Positions 12,001 through 50,864 of a stretch of 64,000 bases of DNA are shown piece after piece. The position numbers and the translations under genes are program-made. Position 1 is the first letter of the stretch. Every line of letters begins with the position of its first letter. The notes beneath the pieces are model-generated. The model saw only the letters and a list, made by a program, of their open reading frames with translations. It searched no databases and was not told the DNA's origin. The DNA is taken from positions 1 to 64,000 of IMG/VR virus record IMGVR_UViG_3300027863_000019; one strand, given 5' to 3'. This DNA comes from a virus.

Positions 12001-12231
12001 ATGTCGCACGGAAAAATTAAATGTCCATGGTGTGATTTCCTCCACGTCGTTCAGTTGTGTGGGGTGATGAAATGTACCATAGCGACATGTCCTATCTATA
12101 AAGAGAACTTTAGGGTAGTATTTGCAGCGGTAGAATGTTTAGCATGTAGTAATCCTTGTAAGGAAAAGAAAGTGTGCGTTGAAGACGTTTCACAGAATAG
12201 CACACTTGTTCGGAAAGGAGTTATAATTTGA
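12001..12231 (+). CDS. 7-Cys family zinc-ribbon-like protein (variant)
   Basis: CPWC...CPIY...FRVVF...CLACSNPC. Confidence 0.65.
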   Translation: MSHGKIKCPWCDFLHVVQLCGVMKCTIATCPIYKENFRVVFAAVECLACSNPCKEKKVCVEDVSQNSTLVRKGVII

Positions 12232-12605
12232 CCGTTAAAATTTTAGAGGGTCGAGAACTTCTACGAAGTGAACCAATTGAATTTGTTGTACACTTGGAAT
12301 GGCCCGAGGAAGCTAATGCAGCCCTTTACTTTCCAGAACGTGAGTATGGTAATGAGGCGACTCTTATCTTCCAGGAGCATTTAACTACTGATAGTGGAGG
12401 TTGGGAGATTGATAGTAGTCCTCTTGTCGGTTGGCATATGTGGCCTCACGCTGATTACTATGAAGAGGATCTTAACTTCGTCCATGTGAAAGCGATTGGT
12501 TCGTGGGTCTGGTTTGTAAAGGTCAATGGAATTTATGATATACCAAAAGAAATAGCTGTAGATATCGTCCACGCGTTGGAGAAACATTTGAAAAAGGGAA
12601 GGTAA
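12228..12605 (+). CDS. Hypothetical protein
   Basis: AAGGAG SD, TTG start. Confidence 0.7.
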   Translation: MTVKILEGRELLRSEPIEFVVHLEWPEEANAALYFPEREYGNEATLIFQEHLTTDSGGWEIDSSPLVGWHMWPHADYYEEDLNFVHVKAIGSWVWFVKVNGIYDIPKEIAVDIVHALEKHLKKGR

Positions 12606-13078
12606 TAAAAATGAAAATCACTTTACTTACTTCAAGGAAATCAAAAGTACTTCTACGTCAGCATTGTGTAATTAAGTGGCCTAAAGGAGCTAATGCGGTA
12701 GTTCATTTAGATGGTTTCCCTCGTGCAGGTTAAATATATAGAAAGTAATATAGTTGATATTGTAGCAGATAAGAAAACCATTTAAATGGTGAAGATCATC
12801 CGAACGGTGGAGCAGCTAAAGTTCTTCGGATGGTTTTAACTTCAGGAGGATTTTAATGTACTTCCGGTTTAATCCTCGTCAAGCCCAATTCTTTCACCAG
12901 CAGATGAATCAGCCTCCACGCGAACAGTTGATTCAATGTTCTGATGGAGTCTATCGACCTGCTAGCATGGTCGAGGAGTTTGAAAACTCCAACTCCGTCA
13001 AACTATTAACTGGACCAAATGATCAAGGTTAAAGAAGTTAGCCGTGAAGAGCTGATCATTGATCTTTTTAGGAGGCTT

Positions 13079-13119
13079 AATTTTCTCCCTTTTTGGAGTC
13101 AAATTAAGCCTAATAAAAT
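13079..13119 (+). promoter_or_regulatory. Phage promoter motif
   Basis: AATTTTCTCCC-N24-TAAAAT plus AT-rich tail. Confidence 0.7.
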
Positions 13120-13232
13120 TAATTAATTAATAAATATAAAACAATAAAAAAATTCGATATCAACACCTACAATCGCTATGCAGAAGGCTAACAGAGTCGT
13201 TAAGGATCTAGTATCTTGGAGGATTTTCTAAA

Positions 13233-13661
13233 GTGAAGCCACTAAGGAAATGGAAGGCGGAGTGTCCGTGCTGTACCCAATTCATTACCTATGATGAATT
13301 AGGTAATGAAAAATCTTGCCCTGTCTTTACTTGTAAGGGGTGTAAGACCGAATTCGTGTGTCCAAACTTTAGATTCCATTGTTCGAAGTGTGCAAATAAG
13401 GCAAATTGTATGAGGTTGCCATTAGTTCACCCATTACTGATTCAGTCGACCTGGAAAGCGTTCTTCCAATCTCGCAGGCTGGGGCTTAAAGAGTTGAGCA
13501 AGCGAGATTGGAATTATTTGTATCGTTTAAATCCGGAGGAAGTTCTTAAACTCCCAGATGTTGACGAAGAAATCTTTCAATCGTACAGTAAGCGAAGAGA
13601 CGCAAAGTTAAAGACCCCGATTACGATCTACTTTGGATTCTTTCATGGGAGTGATTTATGA
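13233..13661 (+). CDS. 7-Cys family protein with C-terminal extension
   Basis: CPCC...CKGC...CSKCANKANCMRLP. Confidence 0.75.
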   Translation: MKPLRKWKAECPCCTQFITYDELGNEKSCPVFTCKGCKTEFVCPNFRFHCSKCANKANCMRLPLVHPLLIQSTWKAFFQSRRLGLKELSKRDWNYLYRLNPEEVLKLPDVDEEIFQSYSKRRDAKLKTPITIYFGFFHGSDL

Positions 13662-13804
13662 CAGAGACACCAACAGATATTCAAGTGTCTCTGATTTGGT
13701 TAAGGGACTAAGAATGTTATTCGAGGCCTCCCGTTCGAGTTGTACTCGGACCTTACAATGAGTAAAGCAAGTCTTTAAACTTGCATATGAAAAAGGAGTA
13801 GAAC

Positions 13805-14317
13805 GTGGCCAACAATCTAACCTCCCTAAAAAAGTTGTATGAAAAAGGAGTAGAAATAATGTTAAGGGGTACCGATCCCATCACTGAAAACGATTGGGAA
13901 CGGCTAACCCATTTCTGGGCATATAATCTTGACGCGAGTTCTTTACCTAACTCGCTCGAAACATTGAGCAATATCTTTCGATCACCGCTTCCGAAAGAAC
14001 GCATCACCAAGATTGGTGTATATTATCAACTGTTGGCCTTTAAACGCCAAGATGAAATGTTAAAGAAACTTCTTGGTCAACTAGTAACCCCCGATCATTT
14101 AAAACATTTACGCTCCATCATGTCACGGAATTTGCAATATGAGGATCTGGTAAAGGTATTCAAGAAATCTGGACTTGAACCTTCATGGCCTCAACAAGAC
14201 GACTGGACGCGGCTAGGTAAGCTGTGCAAAGCATTATTTTCAATGACCGGCGAGAAGTTTAAAACCGCTCAAACTGAAATGGCGAAAATCGTTAATGGTG
14301 GGAAAATAAATGAGTGA
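13805..14317 (+). CDS. Hypothetical protein
   Basis: AAGGAG SD, 170 aa. Confidence 0.7.
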   Translation: MANNLTSLKKLYEKGVEIMLRGTDPITENDWERLTHFWAYNLDASSLPNSLETLSNIFRSPLPKERITKIGVYYQLLAFKRQDEMLKKLLGQLVTPDHLKHLRSIMSRNLQYEDLVKVFKKSGLEPSWPQQDDWTRLGKLCKALFSMTGEKFKTAQTEMAKIVNGGKINE

Positions 14318-14903: not shown

Positions 14904-14959
14904 AACAGTTCACCGTTCCAGAAGGAGTTAGACTTTCGGAATCCCGAGACGCATTTACA

Positions 14960-15325
14960 TTGGCCCAAGCTGTTGGAGATATGATGACAAGGCGTAAGTA
15001 CATTAGTGGAATACTTCAAGGGATTCCTACGGAATCTCTGATCGCAAACATTCGAGTAAAAGGAGTCATTAAGTACAAGCATTATACCTTTCGCGAGTTT
15101 CAATCGAAGGCGTTTGAATGTCCATTATGTGGAATTTCTATAACAGTTAAAACGAGTTACAAATTTGGAGCTCATATTCGTAGAACGAAATGTCCAGAAT
15201 GCGGTGCAGGCTTCTGTTTAATATTTGAAGACAATCCGAATTGGTGTTCGGTTTGCACTTGTAGGAACCTCGAATGTTTAAAGAGGTTTACTCTACTAGC
15301 GGAGGTGATTGATGAAAAGGGGTAG
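14960..15325 (+). CDS. 7-Cys family protein
   Basis: CPLC...CPEC...CSVCTCRNLECL. Confidence 0.7.
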   Translation: MAQAVGDMMTRRKYISGILQGIPTESLIANIRVKGVIKYKHYTFREFQSKAFECPLCGISITVKTSYKFGAHIRRTKCPECGAGFCLIFEDNPNWCSVCTCRNLECLKRFTLLAEVIDEKG

Positions 15326-16067: not shown

Positions 16068-16301
16068 GTGTCTCATTTGATTGAAAAACGCTTGCGTCAA
16101 TTTAGGTGTATCATTTGTCGGGGTGAAAGCTTTGGAATTAGTTCAACGCATGCATTAATTCCGTGTGCATGGGCTTGTAATGATTGTGGGTTAACTCAAA
16201 TTGATCCTCCAGTTGAGGCAATCCGATGCCTCAACTGCGAACACCTGACTGTTTGCTTAGGACTACCTAGAGTGAACATACAGGAGGAAAAACGTGAGTA
16301 A
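16068..16301 (+). CDS. 7-Cys family protein
   Basis: CIIC...CNDC...CLNCEHLTVCLGLP. Confidence 0.7.
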   Translation: MSHLIEKRLRQFRCIICRGESFGISSTHALIPCAWACNDCGLTQIDPPVEAIRCLNCEHLTVCLGLPRVNIQEEKRE

Positions 16302-18079: not shown

Positions 18080-18799
18080 ATGCAAACAATTCTCTATTGG
18101 ACATGTCCTTACTGTGGCTCGGAGAGATCAGTTCTTAAAGGGCTAATTCACGAGAAGTCAACATGCGTTAACCTTTCATGCCATAAAGACCCAGGCTCTT
18201 TCTATAGGCTCGTTATGGATACTGTAAAGTGCCTTGGATGTCACATAGGATGTAACAAAAAAGCTATCGTCACTAAAGAGGGGAACTTCATTTTGAGAGA
18301 TCTGCCTGATGATATCAATGATATCTATAAAGAAGTGATTCGTCGGGGTACTGAACTTATTGAGCAAGCTGACATCGCTCCCATCAAGAGGCAATGTATT
18401 CTCAATGGGTCTTGGGATCAACTTGACCTCGATTTAATTAAGAATATTTGTTTGGGCGCTGGTGCTCAATGTAGTGTAGGAGATTCCATTTATCATAAAG
18501 ACTTTTTCAAGGCCCTTGATATGAGAGTCGAGATAGTTCAACGGCTCTTTGAAGAATGGGGAATCGAATTTCATTGTTCCTTAAACGTAAATTTAAGCGA
18601 AGATTGGTCCTGTTGTTTTAAATCTGAAGACTCTGCGGGCGTCATTTCAGCTCGTTTCTATGATTGGCAAGATGCTATATATGAAATGCTTGGGATCCTT
18701 AATATGAATGAGTTAGTGAGCCAGGCAATTCTACACTGGAGACGTAGAGAAGATTGGATTAAAGAATTACAATACGTCGACTTCAATACGGATAGCTGA
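18080..18799 (+). CDS. 7-Cys family N-terminal domain fused to an unknown domain
   Basis: CPYC...CVNLSC...CLGCHIGC. Confidence 0.7.
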   Translation: MQTILYWTCPYCGSERSVLKGLIHEKSTCVNLSCHKDPGSFYRLVMDTVKCLGCHIGCNKKAIVTKEGNFILRDLPDDINDIYKEVIRRGTELIEQADIAPIKRQCILNGSWDQLDLDLIKNICLGAGAQCSVGDSIYHKDFFKALDMRVEIVQRLFEEWGIEFHCSLNVNLSEDWSCCFKSEDSAGVISARFYDWQDAIYEMLGILNMNELVSQAILHWRRREDWIKELQYVDFNTDS

Positions 18800-19107
18800 T
18801 GAAGAAAAATACTGAACTCGTTGAATTCTTCGCATGCCCAGACTGTAAGCACTTTAGCTGGGAATGCGTTGATTATGTTCCGCTTAATAGCACTTCAGAA
18901 TACGCCTGCTTAGCAGAGTGTGACCACTGTGGTCAAGAACTTTTGGTCGTTGATACGGCGGCGAGATGTACGAAGTGTAAAAATAAAGTAGAGTGTATGG
19001 CTACGCCGTTAAAGCTTGTTCAGGCGACGGCAATGGCTATTCATAAAGACTCAGTGTCAGAGATCAAAAGAACTATTGAACGGTTGGAGAAACAAAATGG
19101 GCTTTAA
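18799..19107 (+). CDS. 7-Cys family protein
   Basis: CPDC...CDHC...CTKCKNKVECMATP. Confidence 0.75.
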   Translation: MKKNTELVEFFACPDCKHFSWECVDYVPLNSTSEYACLAECDHCGQELLVVDTAARCTKCKNKVECMATPLKLVQATAMAIHKDSVSEIKRTIERLEKQNGL

Positions 19108-19516
19108 AAACCCTTTGGAAGATCCTGAAGTTGTTTCGACACTTTATAAAACTCATTTCTTCGCCGGTGCCCTCACTTTACGCCGGCGAGGAAGAAGTTA
19201 TCACTTGGGAGCATGGGGAGACGTTCGTTGGCCAAAAAATCCGTTTATTACGCCTAGTGAAATGCTTTACGTGATGAAGAAGATCTTTGGTCCACCGAAT
19301 GCGTTTAGCTGCGATAAAGTTACTTTTAATTATGTGTTTAAAAGCGCTATACCCGACGTATACTACGAGATCAGAGATTACTGTGGATTCCTTAGTTGTG
19401 GAATTGGGGTCCCAAAAGATATGCACACTTATATCAATAAGCGCTTAACAGAAAAAATCAATAAAGGGCTGAAAGAATTAATTAAGGAGTGTGTTGTTGC
19501 ATACAACCTAATATAA
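19097..19516 (+). CDS. Hypothetical protein
   Basis: GGAG SD before ATG 19097. Confidence 0.65.
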   Translation: MGFKNPLEDPEVVSTLYKTHFFAGALTLRRRGRSYHLGAWGDVRWPKNPFITPSEMLYVMKKIFGPPNAFSCDKVTFNYVFKSAIPDVYYEIRDYCGFLSCGIGVPKDMHTYINKRLTEKINKGLKELIKECVVAYNLI

Positions 19517-19827
19517 TGGTATTCGCACGAATTTATCTTGTTCATTGTCCACGATGTTCTATGCCAGGAAAGGTGAAGATTTTATTTTTTGAGAAATGTT
19601 TCTGTGGAAGATGCCCTCACTGTCAAGCAATGTTTATGTTCGTGAAAAGATCACGCTCATGCAGCAAGTGTAGTAAACGGGTTTTCTGTTTACTACAATA
19701 TCCTATCTTAGTTGGAGACTCATTGAACTATGCGCAAGAGGAGACGAAAAATAAAAAAGGAGCAAATTCCTTTAAGTGGAGTGAGTATCCCGCGAATGCC
19801 CCTAGGTCCCACCATGATTGTGTCTAA
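19489..19827 (+). CDS. 7-Cys family protein (start may be ~19516)
   Basis: CPRC...CPHC...CSKCSKRVFCLLQYP. Confidence 0.7.
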   Translation: MCCCIQPNIMVFARIYLVHCPRCSMPGKVKILFFEKCFCGRCPHCQAMFMFVKRSRSCSKCSKRVFCLLQYPILVGDSLNYAQEETKNKKGANSFKWSEYPANAPRSHHDCV

Positions 19828-20163: not shown

Positions 20164-20496
20164 GTGAAACCAGAAACCACCTTCGAATACTTGTGGCTAA
20201 GGCACTTTATACCGCCTTCAATCACGTTACACGGTAAACGGATTGGAGTTCCCTTATCATGCCCATTCTGTAAAAGAACTGGGCGAAAGGTTGTAACGGT
20301 TTATGAATTGAAGGAGGGTAAGGTGGTGGTCATGCAAGGTAAAAGAAGGTGCAATGCCGTACGATGTGGGATGTGTGGTAGTACTTTTATGGCCACCATC
20401 GAGTGCTTAGCTGAAAAATGCGATAACAGATCGTCATGCCTGCAAATGGGAATCTCAAAGATTGACGTGAGTCACTTATATGAGTGGGAAGAATAA
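20164..20496 (+). CDS. 7-Cys family protein
   Basis: CPFC...CGMC...CLAEKCDNRSSCL. Confidence 0.7.
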   Translation: MKPETTFEYLWLRHFIPPSITLHGKRIGVPLSCPFCKRTGRKVVTVYELKEGKVVVMQGKRRCNAVRCGMCGSTFMATIECLAEKCDNRSSCLQMGISKIDVSHLYEWEE

Positions 20497-20701
20497 TATA
20501 CGAAGAGTACGAATTAAACTCTTGATCTGTTCTAAATGTCATAATGTCTTTCCTATTGCACGCAAAAAGTCACATAATCGTTCAACGGGACATATTAAAC
20601 ATTTGTATTGCCCTGTTTGTGAGAAAGTAACTGAACATGTTGAGCACGACGACAACGCTCTCGGTGCTATGTTCTTCAGCGGACAAAACTTAGCATGGTA
20701 G
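20480..20701 (+). CDS. bL33-like zinc-ribbon protein
   Basis: RVRIKLLICSKC...K.LYCPVCEKVTEHVE resembles ribosomal L33 layout. Confidence 0.55.
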   Translation: MSGKNNIRRVRIKLLICSKCHNVFPIARKKSHNRSTGHIKHLYCPVCEKVTEHVEHDDNALGAMFFSGQNLAW

Positions 20702-21227: not shown

Positions 21228-21434
21228 ATGAAAGAAAAAGTTCACGACAAGTGCATTGGTTGTCAGAAGGTCGACTCCGATCAATTTTGTTTAGTCTATA
21301 GCAAACCTTCTATCTGGTGGGATAAGCGTGGTGGATGTCCAATGGCTACGCATGCTGGAAAGAAAGTAGTTGTTGAGAGTAAGAAAGTTAACCCTCTCAA
21401 AGTTTCACGTAGATCGAAAAGAAGAATCAAATGA
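21228..21434 (+). CDS. PxxKW-family cysteine-rich protein
   Basis: CIGC...FC.VY..P..WW...GCPMATH...KVNPLK.SRR. Confidence 0.75.
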   Translation: MKEKVHDKCIGCQKVDSDQFCLVYSKPSIWWDKRGGCPMATHAGKKVVVESKKVNPLKVSRRSKRRIK

Positions 21435-21436: not shown

Positions 21437-21510
21437 GAGCTCGTAGCTCAACGGTAGAGTACATGACTTTTAATCATGAAGAGAAGGTGCGAGTCCTTCC
21501 GAGCCTACCA
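21437..21510 (+). tRNA. tRNA-Lys(TTT), atypical T-loop
   Basis: CATGA-CTTTTAA-TCATG anticodon arm, CCA end; T-loop TGCGAGT and one acceptor mismatch. Confidence 0.75.
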
Positions 21511-21523: not shown

Positions 21524-21670
21524 ATGCCAATTTACGAATATGAATGTCCGAAATGCAAAACCGTCTTTGAAAGATTCGTTGGTACTAAAGATCCTGAAAC
21601 GACTTACTGCCCCAAGTGTCAGACCGAATCGATTCGGATCATGTCAACTTTTAAGATTGAAATGAAATAG
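21524..21670 (+). CDS. FmdB-family zinc-ribbon protein
   Basis: MPIYEYECPKC...FE...CPKC...RIMS. Confidence 0.85.
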   Translation: MPIYEYECPKCKTVFERFVGTKDPETTYCPKCQTESIRIMSTFKIEMK

Positions 21671-21835: not shown

Positions 21836-22177
21836 GTGCCAACCACTCCCCTAACTACTATGTTCAATTTCGTTATGTTGTGTTACGGAAGGTTGAGTCT
21901 AAGCTTTTCTGGTCAAGCTTCGACTCCGGATGAGTTCATCGATCGTTATGAAAATGGCGAATTCGATCCTTCTGATGATTCAGAAGTTCTTGAGGAGATA
22001 CTTCATGTTAGAGACTTTCATTGTCCGTTATGTAAGTACGTTACAAATTGGACTCTAGTCATTGATAACTGTAAAATAGAATGTGGGCACTGCGGCAGAT
22101 CATTCGTAATCGACGACAAGAAATGTGATTCATGTAGAAAACGTACCGCGGGATGTCTCGCAGTGAGTCCCCTATAA
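21836..22177 (+). CDS. 7-Cys family protein
   Basis: CPLC...CGHC...CDSCRKRTAGCLAVSP. Confidence 0.65.
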   Translation: MPTTPLTTMFNFVMLCYGRLSLSFSGQASTPDEFIDRYENGEFDPSDDSEVLEEILHVRDFHCPLCKYVTNWTLVIDNCKIECGHCGRSFVIDDKKCDSCRKRTAGCLAVSPL

Positions 22178-24330: not shown

Positions 24331-24693
24331 ATGTTCAATTGGTTTAAACGCAAAGCTAAAAAGGAGTCGGATGTCGGAGGTTCGAATCCTTCCACCCCCG
24401 CCAAACCAAAGTTTGCAATCTATAAGAAAACCGATGCACTTGGTCGAGCATTGTTAGGAGATTATCGTCATATTCGAATTAGGTGCATAAGGTGTCTTAA
24501 AATGACTGGAATTATTTCCAACATGTGTTGGGAAGAGCGAGATTCTGGTAAACGAGTAGCCGCGGCTTATAGAGTTGGATGTACTCAATGCGGTGAAATA
24601 TTTCGAGTCGTCTTTAACCCGTTGATTTGTTTATCATGTTCAGATCCATGTAATGCGACATCAACTTGGGATAGGTGGGAAGATGATGAATAA
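24331..24693 (+). CDS. 7-Cys family protein whose 5' part overlaps a tRNA relic
   Basis: CIRC...CTQC..IFRVVF...CLSCSDPC. Confidence 0.7.
   Translation: MFNWFKRKAKKESDVGGSNPSTPAKPKFAIYKKTDALGRALLGDYRHIRIRCIRCLKMTGIISNMCWEERDSGKRVAAAYRVGCTQCGEIFRVVFNPLICLSCSDPCNATSTWDRWEDDE
24371..24403 (+). pseudogene. tRNA 3'-half relic
   Basis: GGAGGTTCGAATCCTTCCACCCCCGCCA (T-arm plus CCA) with no intact 5' half. Confidence 0.7.
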
Positions 24694-26408: not shown

Positions 26409-26789
26409 ATGACAACTAGCGGAACCGATGAGAAGGTAACCGTTGCGAATCCTGAACGGGACCTTGGAGTTGAGTACTGTGAATTTTGTCAACAGAACTT
26501 TCCCGTAAGAGTTCGTATTGTTTCTACTCTGGATGCAGGTGTGCACCTTCAAATATCGGGATTCCATATTCACATGAGTATGAATGGTGAACCGATTCCT
26601 TTAGCACCTCGTTTGATTCGCATCGATGATCTTGACGACTTCCGCGATATTGGAAAAGCCCTGAAGGCTGAAACAATTCGAATCGCGCATGAAGTTGAAG
26701 TACGAGATACTTCTCGTAGAGTAGAAGAACTCGAACAGGAAATCTATCCAGAATGTGAGGAGTCAAAAGAATCCGATGAGGCAGCGTAG
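26409..26789 (+). CDS. CxxC/HxH protein, paralog of 31958-32203
   Basis: CEFC...GFHIHMS vs CEEC...GLHLHMS. Confidence 0.7.
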   Translation: MTTSGTDEKVTVANPERDLGVEYCEFCQQNFPVRVRIVSTLDAGVHLQISGFHIHMSMNGEPIPLAPRLIRIDDLDDFRDIGKALKAETIRIAHEVEVRDTSRRVEELEQEIYPECEESKESDEAA

Positions 26790-27129
26790 AGGATACTCCA
26801 CGAGGTTAAGGCGAACTTATTCGTCAAGCAATCGTTACCAATTCTATAAGTTCTTTTGTTTACATTGCAGAGAAGCGGTCTTTGCGAGATCGTCAGAGCT
26901 TTGGGGAGTCTATGGCAGGGTATTTGAGTGTCCAATGTGTCACGGTTTAATAAGGTTATTTAAACGTACTCGTGCCTTTCCTGATAAGTGTAAGGATTGT
27001 GAGAATCCAGCAGCTTGCATGACAGCTCCTACGTTGCAAGTAGGAACTGGAACGAATATTAGAAAGAAGGAGTTTTCTTTTGACGAACTCCGAGGTCATA
27101 TATTGATTCAGAAATCTGAGACTTGTTGA
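26755..27129 (+). CDS. 7-Cys family protein
   Basis: CLHC...CPMC...CKDCENPAACMTAP. Confidence 0.7.
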   Translation: MRSQKNPMRQRRGYSTRLRRTYSSSNRYQFYKFFCLHCREAVFARSSELWGVYGRVFECPMCHGLIRLFKRTRAFPDKCKDCENPAACMTAPTLQVGTGTNIRKKEFSFDELRGHILIQKSETC

Positions 27130-27138: not shown

Positions 27139-29529
27139 ATGGAGATGGAAAAGGAAGATAAATTTATCCTCTGGCTAGATGAGATTGGACTTCAAGATAG
27201 TTCACTAGTGGGAGGAAAGGGCGCATCGCTCGGCGAGATGTTTCAGAACCTTTCAAACATTGTTTCTATTCCACTGGGATTTGTAGTGACAGTTCGTTCA
27301 TATCGAGACTTGATTAAGCACAATAAACTGCAAAAGGTGATCGAATCCGAGTTGAAGGGATTAGATCCAAGCAACTTAATGGATCTAGCTCGACGCGGTA
27401 ACTCCATTCGCAAAGCAATTTATAATGCGAAGTTTCCCGCTGACTTAACAACCAAGATTGCTCAAGCGTACCTGCAACTCTGTGAGCAGTGTGCTACCGA
27501 TGACTTAAATGTAGCAGTTCGTTCATCGGCAACTACTGAAGACCTATCTAATGCGTCCTTTGCGGGACAGCAAGAGACCTTCTTGAACATACGTGGAGTC
27601 GACGCATTATTAGATTCTATTAAGAAGTGTTTTGCCTCATTATTTACAAATCGCGCGATCTGCTACCGCCATGATAAAGGCTTCGATCAGTTTAACATGA
27701 TCGCTGTTGTGGTTCAGCAAATGATCCGTTCTGACTCTGCGGGTTCTGGAGTCATCTTCACTGCTGATACGGAAACTATGCTGCAGGATATTATGCTTAT
27801 TTCAGCTGGTTATGGGCTAGGCGAAGCAATCGTCCAGGGGCTAGTAAGTCCAGATGAATATTATGTTTACAAGCCGTTCCTGAAAGAGGGATCGGAGAAT
27901 GTCATATTGAGTAAACGTGCAGGTAGTGCAACACAGAAGCTCGTCGGCGGTGAGTCTTCTTCGATTGGTTTTGTTCCTCTAACAGAAGAGGAACAAAAGA
28001 GGTTTGTCTTAACCGATCTGGAGATTTTAGAACTTGCTCGTCAAGCATGTGCAATCGAAGATTACTATTCTTCGAAGGTGGGTCATTATACTCCGATGGA
28101 TATTGAGTTTGCGAAGGATGGGGATGGGGTTACTATTGGAACAGGTAAACTCTATATTGTTCAAGCCAGACCAGAGACGGTTCAATCCAATCGTGATCGT
28201 GCTTATATTGAAAGCTATGTACTTGAATGTTGCGGTTCGGAGATCCTTAGGGGTCAAGCGATCGGAAATAAAATTACAAAGGGAATTGTGAACGTTATCA
28301 AGACGCCAGCTCAAATCGAAGAATTTGGTGATGGTGCAATTCTCGTAGCTGAAATGACGGTTCCTGATTGGGAACCGATCATGAGAAGAGCATCGGGGGT
28401 TATTACCGATGCTGGCGGAAGAACTTGTCATGCAGCTATTGTGTCACGTGAGTTAGGCATTCCATGTGTTATCGGAACCTCAAAGGCCACTAAATATCTT
28501 GAGAACAATCAACAGATTACTATTGATTGTTCTCAAGGCGAAACTGGAATTATCTACAATGGGTTCTTGCCTTACAAAGTCGAGAAGATTCCCGTCAAAG
28601 ATCTGCAAGATACAAAGACGAAGGTAATGGTAAACGTCGGAAATCCTGAGTCGGCCTTTATGCTCGGACAGATTCCTAACGATGGAGTAGGAATCGCACC
28701 GATAGAAACTATCATTAACAACTTCGTCGGCGTTCATCCCTACATACTCCTGAATTTTGAAGCATATGAAAAGTGGATGACTGAGGTGCAAGACGAGACG
28801 TCTCTAGTGCATAAGAAGATGGCGATGTTTCGTCGGGCAAAATATATCTCGACTTTTAATCAAATTCTAAATGAAACCAGAGCTTATCGCCATAAACTCG
28901 ACTACTTCGCTGATAAGCTCGCCTATGGAATTGCGCGAATTGCTGCATCTTTCTATCCGAAAGATGTGTTAATTAGGTTGATCGATCCCAAAGCCGAACC
29001 GTTTTATAATACCTTGTTGGGTGGTCAAGTTATAAAAGAAAGCGCGGACTTCCAGGCAGTCAAGAGTACGATTGAACTGGAATGTCAAGCGATTAAAAGA
29101 GTTCGGAGTGAAATGAAATTTCACTCCATAAAAATCGTGTTGCCTCAAATGAGTGATCCTGAAGATATGGATCGCGTCTTGTTGCAACTCGAGAAGTATG
29201 ACCTTATTCGAGGAAAGGATGGATTGGAAATCTTGGCGACTTGGACTATCGGAACAGATTTCGATGAGGGGTTAATTGAACGATTCGATGGAATCTCATT
29301 GATCCTTCTCGATGAGTTAACCGATTCTTGGAAACTAATAAAGAACGCCCTCCAGGTAATTAAGAAGTATGGAAGAAAGGTTTATTTTCATCCTCAGTCT
29401 TTAGATTCGAAGTCGTTCGTACCTGAGTTAATCGATTTGGGTGTGGATTCGATCTGCCTATTCCCGGAGTCATTGATTCTAGTTAAGTTAGCAGTGGTGC
29501 AAAAGGAGAAAGAACTAAAAAAGAACTAA
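27139..29529 (+). CDS. ppsA: PEP synthase-like protein with degenerate C-terminal pyruvate-binding domain
   Basis: VGGKGASLGEM, VAVRSSATTED..ASFAGQQETFLN, DIEFA, QARPETV, GGRTCHAAIVSRELG intact; C-terminal catalytic motifs altered. Confidence 0.88.
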   Translation: MEMEKEDKFILWLDEIGLQDSSLVGGKGASLGEMFQNLSNIVSIPLGFVVTVRSYRDLIKHNKLQKVIESELKGLDPSNLMDLARRGNSIRKAIYNAKFPADLTTKIAQAYLQLCEQCATDDLNVAVRSSATTEDLSNASFAGQQETFLNIRGVDALLDSIKKCFASLFTNRAICYRHDKGFDQFNMIAVVVQQMIRSDSAGSGVIFTADTETMLQDIMLISAGYGLGEAIVQGLVSPDEYYVYKPFLKEGSENVILSKRAGSATQKLVGGESSSIGFVPLTEEEQKRFVLTDLEILELARQACAIEDYYSSKVGHYTPMDIEFAKDGDGVTIGTGKLYIVQARPETVQSNRDRAYIESYVLECCGSEILRGQAIGNKITKGIVNVIKTPAQIEEFGDGAILVAEMTVPDWEPIMRRASGVITDAGGRTCHAAIVSRELGIPCVIGTSKATKYLENNQQITIDCSQGETGIIYNGFLPYKVEKIPVKDLQDTKTKVMVNVGNPESAFMLGQIPNDGVGIAPIETIINNFVGVHPYILLNFEAYEKWMTEVQDETSLVHKKMAMFRRAKYISTFNQILNETRAYRHKLDYFADKLAYGIARIAASFYPKDVLIRLIDPKAEPFYNTLLGGQVIKESADFQAVKSTIELECQAIKRVRSEMKFHSIKIVLPQMSDPEDMDRVLLQLEKYDLIRGKDGLEILATWTIGTDFDEGLIERFDGISLILLDELTDSWKLIKNALQVIKKYGRKVYFHPQSLDSKSFVPELIDLGVDSICLFPESLILVKLAVVQKEKELKKN

Positions 29530-29544
29530 ATTGGATTTCTTAAG

Positions 29545-29762
29545 ATGTTGACTCCACATGAGATCAGCAACCACAACGGAGGATGTCCCGCTTGTGATAG
29601 AAAAACGGGGTAGGAGGATTTTTATAGTGCGTCAGCATCATTTGCCTTGAATGTAACGGACGACAGGTTCTCACTTATCAATGTAATCGTGGGATCTGTC
29701 TGTTCGAGACAGAGTGTTTGGCGTTTCCATACATCGTGAAAATTCCCCGGTATTACAAATAA
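29545..29762 (+). pseudogene. Disrupted 7-Cys family member
   Basis: CPAC...* then frameshift to CLEC...CNRGICLFETECLAFP. Confidence 0.6.
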
Positions 29763-29867
29763 AACAAAGCCCGTATTCATCTGTCGAGGAGGTTAAAAAA
29801 CTAGCGGGTAAATAAAAACACTAATCTAGTTTCCCTAAATCAACAAGCGCCGCACCATGGGAAGCTA

Positions 29868-30449
29868 ATGGGAGGAGCAGCAATGAACACCCCCTTAGCC
29901 ATACTATTGGCTTCGACGATTGTCCTTTGGCCGATCACAAGCTCGTACGGTTCAGTGAAACCACCACCGGAACCGATTAAAATTCAATTCAAGCAACAAC
30001 AACCGAAATTCTCAAACCATGAAACAACGGATAAAATGCTCCAATGTATTGTTGAGTGTGGGAGGAGATATGGAGTAAAACCCGAAATAATCTTAGCAGT
30101 GGCAAAGATTGAGGGCCAGGATCTCAAAGACGGTTTGATCCGTTTAGGTCCGATAGGAAAAGGGACTTACTATGGACCGATGGGCATTTACTGGGGTTTT
30201 AGAGTTGCGCCGTATTACTGGAATATTGACGATCCTTTTGTTAATGTTGAAGTAGGTGCACGAGCACTTAGGGGCAACTTACGATCCAGGTTGAGGAGGT
30301 ATAACAAGAAGTTTACCAAAAGTTACTACAATGAGATTGTATCTCTCTCGAAAAAATATGAAAGAGAAAAGGTGTTCGAGCGATCTGATAATAAGATGAT
30401 GTTTAAGTTTACTACTCAACAGACCGCAACGCTTTTAAAAGCAAAATAA
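29868..30449 (+). CDS. Lytic transglycosylase (SLT-like) with signal peptide
   Basis: RYGVKPEIILAVAKIE, GPMGI, DPFVNVEVGARAL, YN. Confidence 0.75.
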   Translation: MGGAAMNTPLAILLASTIVLWPITSSYGSVKPPPEPIKIQFKQQQPKFSNHETTDKMLQCIVECGRRYGVKPEIILAVAKIEGQDLKDGLIRLGPIGKGTYYGPMGIYWGFRVAPYYWNIDDPFVNVEVGARALRGNLRSRLRRYNKKFTKSYYNEIVSLSKKYEREKVFERSDNKMMFKFTTQQTATLLKAK

Positions 30450-30519
30450 GCCTTTTAATTTCATCACGAATGAGATATAATCAAATTAATAAGTATAACA
30501 TGAGGATTTAAGTTATGGG

Positions 30520-32203: not shown

Positions 32204-32208
32204 AATCA

Positions 32209-33402
32209 ATGGGATTTTCAAAAGACCAAACACTTACGTTACGTAGGTTGAACGTGATGCTCTTACAAGATCATCCGTTCTATGGTCACATAATGGCCAG
32301 TTGCCGCTGGGATCATGACAATGAGATGCCAGCGGTAGCTGGGCTTAACATCCGCACTGACTATCTTACAATCCTCATCGCAGACGAATTCTTTAAGATG
32401 GACTTCAATGATCAACGGTTCGTGATAATGCACGAACTGTTGCACTTCTTGTTCCAGCATCCTATACGGATGGGTAAGTTCTGCGACTTGGTAAAGAATA
32501 TTGCGGGTGACCTAGCTGTCAACAGTTACATCGTGCAAAGTTCAAGACTTCAAAAAGTGGATGGTTGTTTATATCCGAAACAATTTAATCTCCCCGATAA
32601 CCGTACTTATGAGTTCTATCTTAAAGAACTTAATAAGATGATCCAGAAGAACGAGCTACAACTTCCGGAAGGAATGGGTGGCGGTCAAGGTCAATGTGGC
32701 GGCGGCAAAGGGGAGAAAGCTAAAAGCGGTGAGGGTGGCGAGCACTACTGGGTAATTGAAGGGACTCCAGAAGAAGCGAATGAGCTTGCTCGTCGGATGT
32801 TTAACGTCGCGAAGTCGGTTGGAACTGTTCCTGCAGGCGCGCTCCGTGACTTATATGAAGCGGAAGCGAAGATCAGTTGGGAAGAGTTAGTCATTCAGTC
32901 TTCGCAAAGCTCTGAGATGTCTGAAGAGTGGCGGTTTACAAAACGTCACTACTCTCGTAGGTATCATACCATTCCTGGCGTCGTCCACGAGTATCGTGGA
33001 CGAATGAAGATGTGCGTTGATACTTCGGGTTCTATGGGACCTAAAGAGATTGGCGCATGTTTCAGTGTCGTAGATAAGATGGATGGACTAGGATATGATA
33101 TCGATATCTTTGAGTTTGACGCCGACTTCCAGCGCGAGTATAAGTACTCCGGAATTCCACCCAAAGTTAAAGGCGGAGGCGGAACTCAAATTACGAGCAC
33201 CTTTAAGTACATCGCGGCAGAACATCCCGATACAACTCAAGTGTTCGTGTTTACTGATGGGATGATTTTCGATCTTGACTCAGCAAAAGCAATCGCTGAT
33301 GAGAATGGCTGGGATGTAGTCTTTATTCTAACTGCCGACTATGATGTACCGTTTGGTCAAAAAATCGTCATGGATATTGAAGGTGATATCGATGGCATGT
33401 AA
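32209..33402 (+). CDS. DUF2201-type metallopeptidase plus VWA domain
   Basis: HELLH..FQHP.R, NIAGDLAVN, DTSGSM, GGGGT, FTDG. Confidence 0.88.
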   Translation: MGFSKDQTLTLRRLNVMLLQDHPFYGHIMASCRWDHDNEMPAVAGLNIRTDYLTILIADEFFKMDFNDQRFVIMHELLHFLFQHPIRMGKFCDLVKNIAGDLAVNSYIVQSSRLQKVDGCLYPKQFNLPDNRTYEFYLKELNKMIQKNELQLPEGMGGGQGQCGGGKGEKAKSGEGGEHYWVIEGTPEEANELARRMFNVAKSVGTVPAGALRDLYEAEAKISWEELVIQSSQSSEMSEEWRFTKRHYSRRYHTIPGVVHEYRGRMKMCVDTSGSMGPKEIGACFSVVDKMDGLGYDIDIFEFDADFQREYKYSGIPPKVKGGGGTQITSTFKYIAAEHPDTTQVFVFTDGMIFDLDSAKAIADENGWDVVFILTADYDVPFGQKIVMDIEGDIDGM

Positions 33403-40324: not shown

Positions 40325-40335
40325 ATGGGTGTAGC

Positions 40336-40373
40336 AAGATAGGAGGAACTCTTTAGAGGGTTCCTCCTATCTT
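40336..40373 (+). terminator. Long stem-loop terminator
   Basis: AAGATAGGAGGAACTCT...AGGGTTCCTCCTATCTT. Confidence 0.75.
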
Positions 40374-40620
40374 TCGTTATGTAATCTTTGTGAGTTAGCA
40401 TTCTGTCTTCTTCCTACTACTATTAGTGAGAATTGTCCCAACTTCCTCAGTGGGGAGGAGTGTGCTCAATATTCTTTTGTCGACTCTATAAAGTTTCTGG
40501 AAATAGAAAAATTAATCAAAATAGACGTTGTAACCAAAGAAAGGATTGTCAAATATACTTTTAAATTTTTTGATGCGTCGCATCTCTATTTTTTTATATA
40601 TACATATATTTTAATTTTTT

Positions 40621-40701
<81 letters not shown>

Positions 40702-41114: not shown

Positions 41115-41182
41115 GGTCCTATAGCTCAACAGTAGAGCAGACTCCTCATTAGACTTAGGTTCAATTCCTAACAGGACTATCA
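41115..41182 (+). pseudogene. Degenerate tRNA (CAT anticodon, Met/Ile2-like)
   Basis: GGTCCTATAGCTCAACAGTAGAGCA...CTCATTA...GGTTCAATTCC...AGGACT; anticodon stem broken, no CCA. Confidence 0.6.
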
Positions 41183-41184: not shown

Positions 41185-41526
41185 TTGAAAGACAGAATTG
41201 GTAAACCATTCCATACTTTCGGTCAATTCAGTACTGTAAGATCTCATAAACCGGTTTGTAAGATATCCTGTCCTGCATGTAATCATATAAGTTATTCACA
41301 TTATATCCCTGGTTCATGTATTTCTATAACTTGCGTTAATTGTGAAACTAAGTTTATGGGAACTGTTGAACTTGGTAAGTGTGGCGAATGTGAACAAAGA
41401 GTTCGCTGTCTCGGCTTAATACCAGTTAAGTTTGAAACAGTTGATGATAATTTCGATCGTATTCCATCTGAAAATATTTCAACCTCAACTGGGGTTTTTG
41501 ATGTTTTGCGGAAGCGTTTCATTTAG
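41185..41526 (+). CDS. 7-Cys family protein
   Basis: CPAC...CVNC...CGECEQRVRCLGLIP. Confidence 0.75.
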   Translation: MKDRIGKPFHTFGQFSTVRSHKPVCKISCPACNHISYSHYIPGSCISITCVNCETKFMGTVELGKCGECEQRVRCLGLIPVKFETVDDNFDRIPSENISTSTGVFDVLRKRFI

Positions 41527-41599: not shown

Positions 41600-41974
41600 A
41601 TGAAAATTCCCAGTAAGCTTAGAAAAATCTTGAATGGATTACCGCCATGCCAAGAAAAACAAATCTCGACTTGGTATCACTCTCCGCAAACAGTAGAACC
41701 GTTTATCTTTTGTAAGGATCACGCTTGCGAAGAATGTATACTTCATAAAGCGACTATGATTACTAAATGCCCTTATTGTGGTACTTCAGTAGCAACAACT
41801 GTAGTCGTAGCTAAGAATGGATTTACATTATGTAGAATTGTGCAATGTGTTTGTAGACAACAATTTCGTGTAGTCTTTTGTGACATCTTTTGCAACTCTT
41901 GTAAATGTAAAGCGCAGTGTCTTTCAGTTCCTGCCGTGAAGCCTGATATTAGACTTCATGAAAAAATTAAATGA
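41600..41974 (+). CDS. 7-Cys family protein
   Basis: CPYC...CVC..QFRVVF...CNSCKCKAQCLSVP. Confidence 0.75.
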   Translation: MKIPSKLRKILNGLPPCQEKQISTWYHSPQTVEPFIFCKDHACEECILHKATMITKCPYCGTSVATTVVVAKNGFTLCRIVQCVCRQQFRVVFCDIFCNSCKCKAQCLSVPAVKPDIRLHEKIK

Positions 41975-42934: not shown

Positions 42935-43345
42935 TTGTTATACTTAGTACACGCCTGCACACGTCAAGTTGGAGACAGAATCATTAGCCTTTGTGGCGGA
43001 TGGTGCTGCTACAAGTTGGACTTTAGTCAATTTCCAAACGGAAGGTGGTTTGGAGAGCATTGTTCCTCCCTCATCGACGGGATATGCTCAGACTATGAAA
43101 CACGTCCCTTGGCGTGTGTAGGTGCTCCATTTTACGACGGAAGCTTTGAAGAATACCCACCGAATAAGTTTATTGTTCCGTGGTGTTGTTTTCGTAAGCC
43201 GATCCTTGATAGGTTTGGTATCCCATATGAAATCTTACCAACCGGCGATGATTGTATTATCGCTTATACTGAACAAGGTTTAGGTGATTTCGAAAGATGG
43301 CAAGCAAGAAGGTTTTACCAGAAGCAGACAATATTTTGGGAATAA
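42935..43345 (+). CDS. YkgJ/CxxCxxCC-like Cys-cluster protein, paralog of 50786
   Basis: CGGWCC...CSSL..GIC..YETRPLAC. Confidence 0.7.
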   Translation: MLYLVHACTRQVGDRIISLCGGWCCYKLDFSQFPNGRWFGEHCSSLIDGICSDYETRPLACVGAPFYDGSFEEYPPNKFIVPWCCFRKPILDRFGIPYEILPTGDDCIIAYTEQGLGDFERWQARRFYQKQTIFWE

Positions 43346-43737: not shown

Positions 43738-44166
43738 ATGTCCTTTAAAGTTTATGTAACTTGCCCTCGCTGTTTTAAAACAGTGGAGACGAAGCTCTCG
43801 GCTTTCTTTGGAGAAGGAAAGACTGAAGTTGAAGGATTTTGTACTTCGTGCTGTAAGCCTTTTATCTTCTCCGCAAGTTTCAGTACTGCGCTAGTTGACC
43901 AAGTTAAAATTCACAAAGCAGATGATTTACAGGTGTCTGCGGCTTTTAAAAATTTCGACAAGGCCCAACCTCGGCGCGAACAAAACAAGCGAATTAGGAT
44001 GTGGCGGACGATCGCTTCGGCTTGTAAGAGAATGAAACGAGTCGTTGATTTGATCGCAGGGGAAGTTCCTGCATGTGCACAACAGATGGAATTACTCCAC
44101 AACCACGTTAAGTATACTCGCGCGAGGTTAAAAGCTGAAGGAGTAATTTCAGATGGCAAAGGGTGA
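43738..44166 (+). CDS. Zinc-ribbon protein, paralog of 44855
   Basis: CPRC...FFGEG...FCTSC. Confidence 0.7.
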   Translation: MSFKVYVTCPRCFKTVETKLSAFFGEGKTEVEGFCTSCCKPFIFSASFSTALVDQVKIHKADDLQVSAAFKNFDKAQPRREQNKRIRMWRTIASACKRMKRVVDLIAGEVPACAQQMELLHNHVKYTRARLKAEGVISDGKG

Positions 44167-44854: not shown

Positions 44855-45403
44855 ATGGCTAGAACATTCTCGAAGGGTTTCGAACTCACAGGATTTAGAG
44901 CTCGAAACCCTTTAGATCCTTCTATGACCCTATTCCTTGTAGTCAAGTGTCCTAATTGTCAAAGGTTAATAAGGTTCTCATTGAACGGTATATTTGGTGA
45001 AGGTTGGTCCATGAGAACCTTTTTCTGTAAAGGGTGCAATCAAACTCACGCAATCACGATGTTCTTTGAATCGAAGACAGGAACAGTATTAAGTGACACT
45101 GCTAATTATACTAATCTAACTGAATCTCTTCTTAGGGCGAGTGGATCACGCCAACTTCATAAAGCCCATTCGCTTTTGCCAGGTCAAGTGAGATTAGATG
45201 ATCCTGCTAAGATGTTAGGTTATCCAACTGCAACGCTCGCAAAGTTTCTATCTATCTATGTAAAAACATTTGAAAAGCATGTAAATAGCACCATTTGGGA
45301 AAAGAAGCTTCATCCTATCGAAGTAGAGAGCCTCAAGATGATCAGTAGTATTTTACTATGCATGAAAAATATGCTGAAAAAATTTACCGGGGAGGAACCT
45401 TAA
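44855..45403 (+). CDS. Zinc-ribbon protein, paralog of 43738
   Basis: CPNC...IFGEG...FCKGC. Confidence 0.7.
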   Translation: MARTFSKGFELTGFRARNPLDPSMTLFLVVKCPNCQRLIRFSLNGIFGEGWSMRTFFCKGCNQTHAITMFFESKTGTVLSDTANYTNLTESLLRASGSRQLHKAHSLLPGQVRLDDPAKMLGYPTATLAKFLSIYVKTFEKHVNSTIWEKKLHPIEVESLKMISSILLCMKNMLKKFTGEEP

Positions 45404-45734: not shown

Positions 45735-46325
45735 GTGACAGCAAAGACGCATGATGAATTGGTATTAGAAAATCGCGGCTTTGTTTATGACATGGCCAAG
45801 AACTACTCTTCGAGTGGAGTTCCATTTAATGATCTTGTGAACGCTGGAATGTTGGGCTTAGTAATTGCAGCGAAGAAGTACGATGAGAAACGCGAAGTAA
45901 AGTTTATCTCCTTTGCTACTTGTTGGGTCCAACATGAAATGATAAAAGTTATTCGCGAGACAAGATTTCCTTGTCGCGTTCCTTTAAACCTTAACAAAGT
46001 TATTAATCAAGCAAGACGCGGGGAGCTCGAAGATAATGATCCAACATTAGTAGATATCATGCCTCTATTAAAGACTCCGGAGGCGTTACAGCTTAATGAC
46101 ACTGTAACATTTGGTCAAGGAGTTGTAGATAAGGTAAGTATCCGACAAGCTCTTGAGGCTGTGGATTATAGAACGCGTGAAATGATTAAGATGTTATTTG
46201 GGATTGATAGAAATGATTCTTGCAACATCCCAGAAATATCTGAAGCGTTTCATCTTTCAAAACAACGAGTCCGGAACATTATCAAAGCCGGACTCGTTAT
46301 CATCAAGAAAACCTTGGAAAGATAG
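45735..46325 (+). CDS. Sigma70-family RNA polymerase sigma factor
   Basis: DLVNAGMLGL..AA.KYD....KFISFA..W; region 4 EISEAFHLSKQRVRNI. Confidence 0.88.
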   Translation: MTAKTHDELVLENRGFVYDMAKNYSSSGVPFNDLVNAGMLGLVIAAKKYDEKREVKFISFATCWVQHEMIKVIRETRFPCRVPLNLNKVINQARRGELEDNDPTLVDIMPLLKTPEALQLNDTVTFGQGVVDKVSIRQALEAVDYRTREMIKMLFGIDRNDSCNIPEISEAFHLSKQRVRNIIKAGLVIIKKTLER

Positions 46326-47070: not shown

Positions 47071-47289
47071 GTGATAGAAAGTACGCCCATCTATGGATGG
47101 ATGTGTCCAAGATGCAATAGATTAATAACAACAATCGAATCTTGGCCAGCTCAAACTGATCAATGCCGTTTGTATTGTCAAAGATGTAACATAAAGGTTG
47201 TGATTAAGACTCATGACCTTTGTGATGCGTGTGATGCAAGAGTTGAATGCTTGGGATTGTCTCAAGCAATTAGAAAATTACTGGATTAA
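47071..47289 (+). CDS. 7-Cys family protein
   Basis: CPRC...CQRC...CDACDARVECLGL. Confidence 0.7.
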   Translation: MIESTPIYGWMCPRCNRLITTIESWPAQTDQCRLYCQRCNIKVVIKTHDLCDACDARVECLGLSQAIRKLLD

Positions 47290-48664: not shown

Positions 48665-48734
48665 GATTTTGACAAATTGGTTTGTGAATCAAGAATTCAC
48701 GTTGTAAACTTCTCTCTAAGGGGTTTTATCGTTC

Positions 48735-49703: not shown

Positions 49704-49707
49704 TGGA

Positions 49708-49821
49708 ATGAGCGATAGTTTTTTTTTTCAACGTATTGACTCCGAAGAAAAAGCATACTGGCTCGGTTTTATTTATGCGGATGGTTGTCCCCGTAAGGGA
49801 AAACGCTCAAAATTTTTATAA
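49708..49821 (+). pseudogene. LAGLIDADG homing endonuclease N-terminal relic
   Basis: FFQRIDSEEKAYWLGFIYADGC then early stop. Confidence 0.75.
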
Positions 49822-49871
49822 GAAGGCAAGTCGCACAAATTAATGATTGAATTTTTCCCGGTAGGATCGTA

Positions 49872-50120
49872 ATGGTCATTTCAATTATCTCTTGGAAGAA
49901 TACATGGCGCGTGAAGAAGCGCGGAGCTCAGCGCGCCATGAAAGTTTTTAAAACTCTTAAAGATGCTGAAGTCTATGCTAAGGGTTTAAAAGACGTCGAA
50001 GAGATTTTCATTCACCGTAAAGATGGATCCGTTGCAAGACGTATTACAATTTTAATCGAAGAAGGGAGAAAGACTACCGTTATCGATTTCTTTTCAAAGG
50101 AGTCCACAAATGGAATCTAA
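49872..50120 (+). CDS. DUF2188-like protein
   Basis: WRVKKRGAQRA..F.T..A...A...E.FIHRKDG. Confidence 0.75.
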   Translation: MVISIISWKNTWRVKKRGAQRAMKVFKTLKDAEVYAKGLKDVEEIFIHRKDGSVARRITILIEEGRKTTVIDFFSKESTNGI

Positions 50121-50343
50121 ATCACTATTCGGAATCCTTTGGGACTTCGTTAAAAGTCTTTGGGGTTGGTTTTCAGCTCGTAAGAAAGAACAACAAGCTG
50201 AACGCGAACAACTAAACGAACAAACAGAAACTAAAGTCCAAGAGGATATTCAGAAGGTTGATGAACAACACAAAGAAAAGCAAGATGAAATCAATAACCT
50301 TAAAACTGGCAATGATATCGCTAACAGCTTTAATAAGCTTTAG
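50110..50343 (+). CDS. i-spanin-like protein
   Basis: N-terminal hydrophobic segment plus coiled coil, overlapping a lipoprotein gene. Confidence 0.5.
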   Translation: MESKSLFGILWDFVKSLWGWFSARKKEQQAEREQLNEQTETKVQEDIQKVDEQHKEKQDEINNLKTGNDIANSFNKL

Positions 50344-50599
50344 TTGTGCGAGTGTTCCTACTAAACCAACATACGTTTCAAAGAATGTGGTTCAGTTTGA
50401 GCATGTATTAAAACCCGAGAAGATTGGGGATCTTAATGCGTTCTCACTAGTAGATCCTAAGTATGGGACAATCGTTTGCTTTACGGCTGAGAAGGCTAAG
50501 AAGTTACGCCTCTATATCGATCAGCAAGATCAAGCTATCGATAGAGCCAACGTAATTATCAATAATGCAAACGCTTACATCAAATCACTCAATAAGTGA
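50285..50599 (+). CDS. Lipoprotein, o-spanin-like
   Basis: Signal peptide with lipobox-like LISFSC. Confidence 0.55.
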   Translation: MKSITLKLAMISLTALISFSCASVPTKPTYVSKNVVQFEHVLKPEKIGDLNAFSLVDPKYGTIVCFTAEKAKKLRLYIDQQDQAIDRANVIINNANAYIKSLNK

Positions 50600-50864
50600 T
50601 CAGCCAGTAACTTTAATTAAATTATCTGTCACTTGTCCCATTTGTGGGTGGTATTACTCTGGTCATTTAAGGTTCCCGGAACCACCCTACTGTAACGATA
50701 AACAGTGTACTGGATGTAAAACAATTTTTAAGGTGAGATATAAGCTCTCATCTGAAGTCTGCGACGAGTGTAATCATAAGTTAAGATGCTTATCAATGCC
50801 CGTTGCAGATGTCAAAGAAAATATTCAACACGCGATGTTAGGAGATATAAATTGGAGTACATAG
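50565..50864 (+). CDS. 7-Cys family protein
   Basis: CPIC...CTGC...CDECNHKLRCLSMP. Confidence 0.7.
   Translation: MQTLTSNHSISDQPVTLIKLSVTCPICGWYYSGHLRFPEPPYCNDKQCTGCKTIFKVRYKLSSEVCDECNHKLRCLSMPVADVKENIQHAMLGDINWST

Follow-up and report, generated by a model that had tools for sequence, protein, structure and literature searches.

Dispersed small proteins with an eight-cysteine domain in a large uncultivated sediment phage

The window analysed here is a stretch of 64,000 nucleotides, positions 1 to 64,000 of IMGVR_UViG_3300027863_000019, from a large uncultivated sediment phage. It is a phage-like stretch in which essentially all genes lie on the + strand. Fifteen of these genes, all within 39 kb, encode small cysteine-rich proteins. 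One domain is common to all 15 open reading frames (ORFs), and the family they form is genuine; two decayed copies accompany the intact ones. The domain pattern is C-P-x-C, x15-34, C, x3-4, C-x2-C, x9-19 (mode 12), C-x2-C, x5, C-L. The cysteines are numbered Cys1 to Cys8 in this order; CPxC and the second CxxC form the first and second knuckles. A preliminary description, made from the sequence alone, had counted seven. Eight are conserved, the extra one standing 3-4 residues ahead of the second CxxC. Members are named below by their first position; lengths are in amino acids (aa), and E-values are those of leave-one-out searches, in which each member is sought with a hidden Markov model (HMM) built without it.

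12001-12231, + strand: member of 76 aa, FRVVF subtype (E 2.7e-5); no Cys5 (CPIY), ending CLACSNPC, with another Cys 5 residues further.
13233-13661, + strand: member of 142 aa, domain N-terminal (E 6.5e-7); a C-terminal extension of ~80 aa is also found in P0157 and L013:918-1421.
14960-15325, + strand: member of 121 aa (E 7.5e-4); no Cys3, with a compensating Cys 4 residues past Cys5 (CPECGAGFC); ortholog L013:3232-3624, 59% identity.
16068-16301, + strand: member of 77 aa, eight Cys complete (E 5.5e-4); ortholog L013:6641-6883, 44% identity.
18080-18799, + strand: divergent member of 239 aa, with CPYC, C-x4-C-H and CLGCHIGC (fails leave-one-out); a fused acidic C-terminal domain of ~180 aa matches P0160 (178 aa, separately called, on a 33,369-bp contig).
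18799-19107, + strand: member of 102 aa, eight Cys complete (E 1.8e-8); seven related sequences at 55-60% identity share many conserved non-Cys residues.
19489-19827, + strand: member of 112 aa, basic core (+10) (E 4.5e-8); ortholog L014:5438-5815, 55% identity.
20164-20496, + strand: member of 110 aa, long ribbon loop, upstream of tRNA-Pro (E 4.2e-8); closest relative P0052, 48% identity.
21836-22177, + strand: member of 113 aa, acidic N-terminus (E 7.4e-7); starts 25 nt past tRNA-Asn.
24331-24693, + strand: member of 120 aa, FRVVF subtype, ending CLSCSDPC (E 4.3e-4); starts 8 nt past tRNA-Gln.
26755-27129, + strand: member of 124 aa, Arg-rich N-terminus, no Cys3, a Cys in the C-terminal tail (fails leave-one-out).
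41185-41526, + strand: member of 113 aa, TTG start 6 nt past a tRNA (E 2.8e-7); the ortholog in contig G001 is 39% identical.
41600-41974, + strand: member of 124 aa, FRVVF with the canonical x5 ending (E 1e-7); an additional N-terminal Cys/His cluster is shared with P0037 and P0100.
47071-47289, + strand: minimal member of 72 aa, overlapping the start of the SNF2-type helicase gene (E 1.3e-8).
50565-50864, + strand: member of 99 aa (E 2.1e-6); syntenic orthologs in G001, L005, L006 and a 117-kb contig.
29545-29760, + strand: probable frameshifted pseudogene, knuckle 1 in frame 1 and the remainder in frame 3.
40335-40560, + strand: second decayed copy, first knuckle lost and CxxC degraded.

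All 15 ORFs picked out in the preliminary description are present, each on the + strand, and an alignment of their cores shows a single common domain. Of the 645 six-frame ORFs with 40 residues or more, 11 match a regular expression for the Cys pattern, and each of the 11 is on the + strand; the expectation is 0.005 (mean of 200 residue shuffles). Mutual detection by HMM, which the preliminary description had made the test of kinship, holds for most of the family: 10 of 15 members are recovered at E <= 3e-5, three are marginal and two fail. The marginal ones (14960, 16068 and 24331) score ~5e-4, close to the generic zinc ribbons of the window. Both failures, 18080 and 26755, are supported as members because evidence independent of the leave-one-out HMMs links them to the family. 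An independent, database-wide profile search gives three full-length relatives of 26755 (P0062, P0102 and P0113). Member 18080 reaches E 1.9e-4 against a profile built without it, and BLAST groups it with 12001 and 24331.

The domain had not been recognised at the outset, and no Pfam or PHROG family covers it. In Pfam, the best scores for the ten members scanned are 10-17 bits against cut-offs of 21-40, so that no family, zinc ribbons included, reaches threshold. No PHROG matches more than two of 59 family sequences, tblastn of member 50565 finds no match at E <= 1 among GenBank phages (50,697 records), and a word-index search with 26755 finds no homolog.

A subtype with the ending CxxCxxxC had been described as often following FRVVF. 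The ending does occur in 12001, 18080 and 24331; 41600 carries FRVVF with the x5 ending. The pseudogene call at 29545 is plausible, with CPAC followed by a stop in frame 1 and C-x4-CLEC, C-x4-C-x5-CLxFP in frame 3; its HMM score is weak (E 0.9). The relic at 40335-40560, which had been missed, is 46% identical to an intact member of G001. After it, at 40623-40698, lies an unbroken run of ~75 T, which may be real or an assembly artefact.

Cysteine occupancy was counted in 96 distinct full-length domains, taken together from the window, from six related loci and from 42 representatives in the database. Cys1 to Cys8 are occupied at 100, 100, 89, 100, 94, 99, 100 and 96%, respectively, and 95 of the 96 domains have at least eight cysteines when the C-terminal tail is counted. 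The C-terminal cluster reads CxxC-x5-C in 77 of 92 domains and CxxC-x3-C in three. Eleven domains are without Cys3, and a replacement Cys is found at three kinds of place. In five domains (the 14960 group, P0068, L020:1940 and L019:3044) it follows Cys5 by 4-7 residues: four in the 14960 type, P0068 and the L020 member, seven in the L019 member. Such a residue would sit in the second hairpin, on the partner of the strand that bears Cys3. All four proteins of the 26755 group, in which Cys3 is also absent, carry a tail Cys within the last 1-8 residues. In 24331 and L020:5635 the replacement lies upstream of the usual Cys3 position. The Cys5-less subtype (12001, P0101 and some L014 members) likewise has an additional Cys, either close to Cys3 or within the C-terminal cluster.

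Ligand compensation of this kind is the expected product of selection for a fourth ligand, which argues against an open three-Cys site. The preliminary description had proposed just that, a zinc ribbon plus an open three-Cys site; it is unsupported, the eighth Cys being present in 89% of the 96 domains and otherwise replaced. We consider it very unlikely that the C-terminal CxxC-x5-C is an open site, completed in a dimer or holding Fe-S or iron, and that the family consists of redox or metal-handling proteins. The domain does close with three tightly spaced cysteines, a few members (e.g. P0048) have seven cysteines only, and stand-alone CxxC-x5-CL motifs are fused to hydrophobic segments in G001. 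Against this, 95 of 96 domains keep the eighth Cys or have a substitute for it, so that a full Cys4 site could form inside a single chain, in agreement with two such sites per chain. The 4Fe-4S ferredoxin motif is CxxCxxCxxxCP, a spacing to which the C-terminal cluster does not conform, and at least 15 divergent copies per genome are hard to square with an electron carrier. The domain thus likely holds a pair of metal ions, zinc most likely, each in a Cys4 site. The family profile aligns the four zinc ligands of Elf1 with Cys1, 2, 4 and 5 (E 2e-4, profile positions 3-46), which makes a ribbon site of Cys1/2/4/5 and a second site of Cys3/6/7/8 the likely partition; alignment and compensation are its two foundations.

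AlphaFold2 (AF2) models of 47071 and 26755 have mean predicted local distance difference test (pLDDT) values of 75.8 and 78.3, the latter with core blocks at 83-93. Both models show the same order: two hairpins made up of four strands, then a pair of short helices and a last strand. Strands flank each knuckle, and the helices carry Cys6/7 and Cys8. Prediction of a homodimer of the 72-aa member 47071 with four zinc ions gives a score of 0.00, the fold of the partner being uncertain, and speaks neither for nor against a dimer. No whole-domain match among solved or predicted structures is significant in the PDB, a set of 48,161 chains, BFVD or ESM Atlas. The best PDB hits by Foldseek have E 0.85-0.9 for the two models, the best VIA-align hit among the 48,161 chains has Z 3.2, and the best viral structure in BFVD has E 0.18. 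ESM Atlas gives a best template modelling (TM) score of 0.65, to an insert of Planctomycetota ValRS-like proteins. Generic zinc ribbons, YfgJ (a two-zinc protein) and the RING2 domains of RBR ligases make up the weak neighbours.

The paralogs are old. Within the window they are mutually at most 33% identical (best local match), whereas the best relatives elsewhere reach 44-77% identity for 12 of the 14 members compared; for 21836 and 24331 these are only 35-39%, over short alignments. The duplications are therefore older than the split of these phages. The 18799 group has 34 invariant columns, many of them non-Cys, from which each paralog appears to be under purifying selection. Many non-Cys residues are retained among orthologs, so that each paralog gives the impression of a fixed function and not of hypervariability. 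Gene birth and death nevertheless continue, with gains, losses and two relics. Variable copy number among related phages, the two decayed copies and the placement of several copies at tRNA junctions and in variable regions could also mean that the copies are largely dispensable or selfish small genes, duplicating in permissive regions with no specific function. This is improbable. The paralogs are ancient, yet 12 of 14 have relatives at 44-77% that conserve non-Cys residues; ligand compensation indicates selection on the fold; and Pfam finds no nuclease or mobility domain in members or extended relatives.

Expansion of the family extends through a clade of uncultivated phages. Searching 1.84 billion representatives with the profile yields 146 matches at E < 1e-3, of which ~45 are small proteins aligned end to end. 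The remainder are repeats of ordinary ribbons that match the first half of the profile only. Ten clusters were checked; each is a singleton or a pair, drawn from JGI, Logan, ENA and NCBI metagenome-type assemblies. All genomic surroundings examined for relatives are phage-like, with genes on one strand, and several show synteny with the window. Loci related to the 18799 group number zero in IMG/VR and three in metagenomes. Copy numbers in related loci, counted at locus-specific E-value limits, are as follows.

G001, 31.6 kb: 9 matches (E <= 0.01); polymerase 82% identical to that of the window.
L013, 10.6 kb: 8 copies (E < 2e-5); contig with an 18799 ortholog.
L014, 10.9 kb: 10 copies (E < 1e-6); contig with an 18799 ortholog.
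L007, 6 kb: 5 copies (E < 3e-6); more distant, with DnaB flanked by members.
L019, 20 kb: 8 copies (E < 3e-6); from a syntenic 88-kb contig.
L020, 15.6 kb: about 18 hits (E < 1e-3); NCBI metagenome-type assembly.

G001 has further copies in a 6-kb stretch that the window lacks. Several ORFs of L020 have the C-terminal motif only. Two G001 ORFs, L012:3642-4082 (- strand) and L012:6563-7012 (- strand), likewise have only CxxC-x5-CLG, after which come hydrophobic segments that probably span the membrane. The C-terminal knuckle may also be an independent module. Inside the member-rich stretch of L020 lies a gene with a Pfam hit to Acb2/Tad1-hairpin, an anti-CBASS/Thoeris sponge family (L020:8921-9142).

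Several members stand at tRNA junctions. The window has six tRNAs; Rfam adds 21437-21507 and 41115-41179, which ARAGORN missed. A tRNA 3' end lies 6-25 nt ahead of members 21836, 24331 and 41185, and among relatives P0087 and some L014 ORFs have tRNA-like translations at their start. The order of tRNA and then small zinc gene recurs. The first ~25 codons of ORF 24331 (24331-24405) overlap a 5'-truncated tRNA-like sequence with the T-arm GGTTCGAATCC and the acceptor 3' strand. This remnant follows directly after the intact tRNA-Gln and, because it overlaps the 5' end of the ORF, the true start codon of 24331 is uncertain. The 120 nt upstream of members contain no common 8-mer or promoter-like element. 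Other small Cys proteins are encoded between the tRNAs: 21228-21434 is a DUF6811 protein (E 5e-15) and 21524-21670 has an FmdB-type Zn_ribbon_8 (E 2e-13). A guess that 20480-20701 encodes ribosomal protein bL33 has no support from Pfam.

Members lie among replication genes and small accessory genes. The window encodes a family A DNA polymerase with a UDG-like domain at its N-terminus, a DnaB-type helicase, the SNF2-type helicase and a metallophosphatase. Further features are as follows.

27139-29529: full-length PEP-synthase/PPDK-like protein; N-terminal and phospho-His domains strong, C-terminal PEP-binding domain weak (E 4.6e-7, partial).
45735-46325: sigma-factor-like ORF, the positional counterpart of Sigma70-domain genes in two related contigs.
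53391-55337: intein-bearing gene of 648 aa (Pfam Intein_splicing E 1e-11) with a LAGLIDADG-like insert.

The G001 counterpart of the 53391-55337 gene starts with a DnaG-type zinc ribbon, and only 247 of its residues align, as if it were intein-free. A QueE-like radical-SAM gene (31027-31704) in the window and PTPS (QueD-like) genes in related contigs, e.g. L019:19499-19894, hint at 7-deazaguanine DNA modification in the phage clade. Other cysteine-rich genes lie near the members. The gene at 50786-51499, which overlaps the end of member 50565, encodes a putative metal-chelating protein of the CxxCxxCC type (YkgJ-type, PF03692, E 2.7e-6); the product of 42935-43345 is also Cys-rich, with no Pfam match. 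In a paralog pair, 43738-44166 and 44855-45403, a four-Cys ribbon at the N-terminus (CPxC, then F[FC]CxxC) precedes a helical C-terminal half. The two genes, which are conserved in G001, match the family profile over the ribbon half only (E 1e-4 and 0.018, respectively). Stretches identical to the window are present in three other samples (L008-L010, 100% identity), and blastn of 27139-33402 against phages gives no match. Regarding the host, a scan of genome contigs with P0038 found nothing, and a scan with the polymerase found only relatives at 29-31%, in unrelated metagenome-assembled genomes.

Outside the cysteines, prolines, glycines and hydrophobic columns there is a single conserved column (K/R in 72%, two residues past Cys7), and no catalytic-looking invariant residue is seen in the family. 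Domain net charge ranges from -7 to +11, with a median of +2. Column conservation and charge range thus bear out the earlier proposal of a constant scaffold of cysteines and hydrophobic residues that is variable elsewhere. Several members carry extensions, as had also been noted there under the name of fused domains. Among ten extended relatives, Pfam identifies no fused domain, bar a sub-threshold AAA_15 fragment at L013:2721-3287.

One possible explanation, which we hold to be less than probable, is that the members bind DNA or RNA specifically, as regulators or as architectural proteins, and constitute a set of phage transcription, replication or RNA-processing factors. Net charge is positive in 68 of the 96 domains and in 13 of the 15 window cores, the 26755 group has an Arg-rich N-terminal tail, and members adjoin tRNA and replication genes. 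By sequence the nearest match is Elf1, and by structure it is ribosomal zinc-ribbon proteins; the same idea has been put forward for the zinc ribbons of Bacillus phage G (PMC7824862). The domains nevertheless have no family-wide basic patch beyond the one K/R column, and 23 of 96 are acidic. In charge, the full proteins are no different from the window median (pI 9.0), and no DNA-binding domain reaches Pfam threshold in members or extended relatives. The acidic members, the fusions to hydrophobic segments and the accessory-gene context favour varied targets.

The reading we prefer, with about even confidence, is that the members are old paralogs of one lineage-specific phage domain of ~60 residues, serving as two-Cys4 scaffolds with paralog-specific binding surfaces. 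The proposed arrangement is as follows. (i) Site 1 would be an ordinary zinc ribbon, with Cys1/2/4/5 contributed by CPxC and CxxC at two beta-hairpin turns. (ii) Site 2 would combine Cys3, from the strand ahead of knuckle 2, with the cysteines of the C-terminal CxxC-x5-C, borne by two short helices. (iii) The fold would be held by the metals together with a small hydrophobic core, made of the F after knuckle 2 and the terminal h-x-C-L, so that nearly all other positions could vary freely. (iv) Each paralog would then be a rigid mini-scaffold with its own binding surface, sometimes plus a tail or extra domain. (v) Each would bind a different protein or nucleic-acid target during early and replication gene expression. 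(vi) Birth and death would shape the repertoire, with each copy subsequently held by purifying selection.

Four points weigh against this scheme. The leave-one-out scores of 18080 and 26755 fall under those of generic window ribbons. In the AF2 model of 26755 the last four residues have pLDDT 57, so that docking of the tail Cys is without model support. The ligands may instead be divided into Cys1-4 and Cys5-8. Finally, conservation of members is 39-65% as against 43-55% for nearby small ORFs; members are no less conserved than these neighbours, and an arms race is therefore not indicated. A bolder version of the scaffold reading is offered tentatively, as something we would not expect to hold in full: the clade would keep a library of dozens of two-zinc mini-binders with an unseen ribbon-plus-knuckle fold for host takeover, each with a different host or phage target. 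In this version the second metal site would be plastic, its fourth ligand having moved to at least three places in the chain.

Among known systems, Cys4 zinc ribbons (Elf1, TFIIS, RPA12, ribosomal eS27 and eL43, bL32-type) resemble the first half of the domain, with knuckles of CPxC and CxxC-G at beta-hairpin turns. The two CxxC knuckles of a zinc ribbon are present, each at a hairpin turn: Cys1, 2 and 4 are occupied at 100% and Cys5 at 94%, with strands beside each knuckle in the AF2 models. The best structural neighbours are ribosomal zinc ribbons and YfgJ, at Z 3.0-3.2. Zinc ribbons have four ligands, whereas the phage domain adds Cys3 and the C-terminal CxxC-x5-C-L on two short helices, which would make eight.

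RING domains and the IBR/RING2 domains of the RBR ligases HOIP and HOIL-1 are alike in having eight metal ligands in ~60 residues. RING2 of HOIP and HOIL-1 is among the top Foldseek rows for both models, at non-significant values (E 0.9-6, TM 0.2-0.36, 36-40 columns). RING and IBR ligand patterns are C3HC4 or C6HC and include a His ligand. The phage pattern is C2-C-C2-C2-C, with no conserved His and other spacing. The best whole-domain likeness in shape, to the zinc-binding insert of the Planctomycetota ValRS family (TM 0.65 by query, 62 residues, root-mean-square deviation 2.4), compares model with model for a very small domain and suggests a resemblance of shape only.

The closest parallel to the expansion as such is Bacillus phage G, in which Iyer et al. 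(2021, PMC7824862) describe a zinc ribbon in ~35 copies and propose that the proteins act as transcription factors or structural DNA binders. The preliminary description, which called expansion on this scale unusual in phages, was thus only partly right: the same phenomenon is seen with another zinc ribbon, whose small, diverged paralogs number in the dozens within a single large phage and have been proposed to be specific binders. Searched with the family profile, the phage G genome gives one weak partial match (E 0.04, positions 2-41). The phage G copies examined have a ribbon and then a helical tail with a conserved KYWKENDRYL at its end, and no second Cys cluster; the motif is absent from all members. 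By sequence, the phage G ribbons are a different family.

Large phages spend much coding space on small proteins, and here one undescribed, probably metal-binding domain is carried by 15 genes. The domain is small and probably very stable, and its relocated ligand would be a case of evolutionary rebuilding of a metal site. If members are specific binders, they would provide pointers to the host processes that are targeted, as well as a compact natural scaffold for binder design. Set beside Bacillus phage G, the family suggests that expanded families of zinc mini-proteins recur in large phages.

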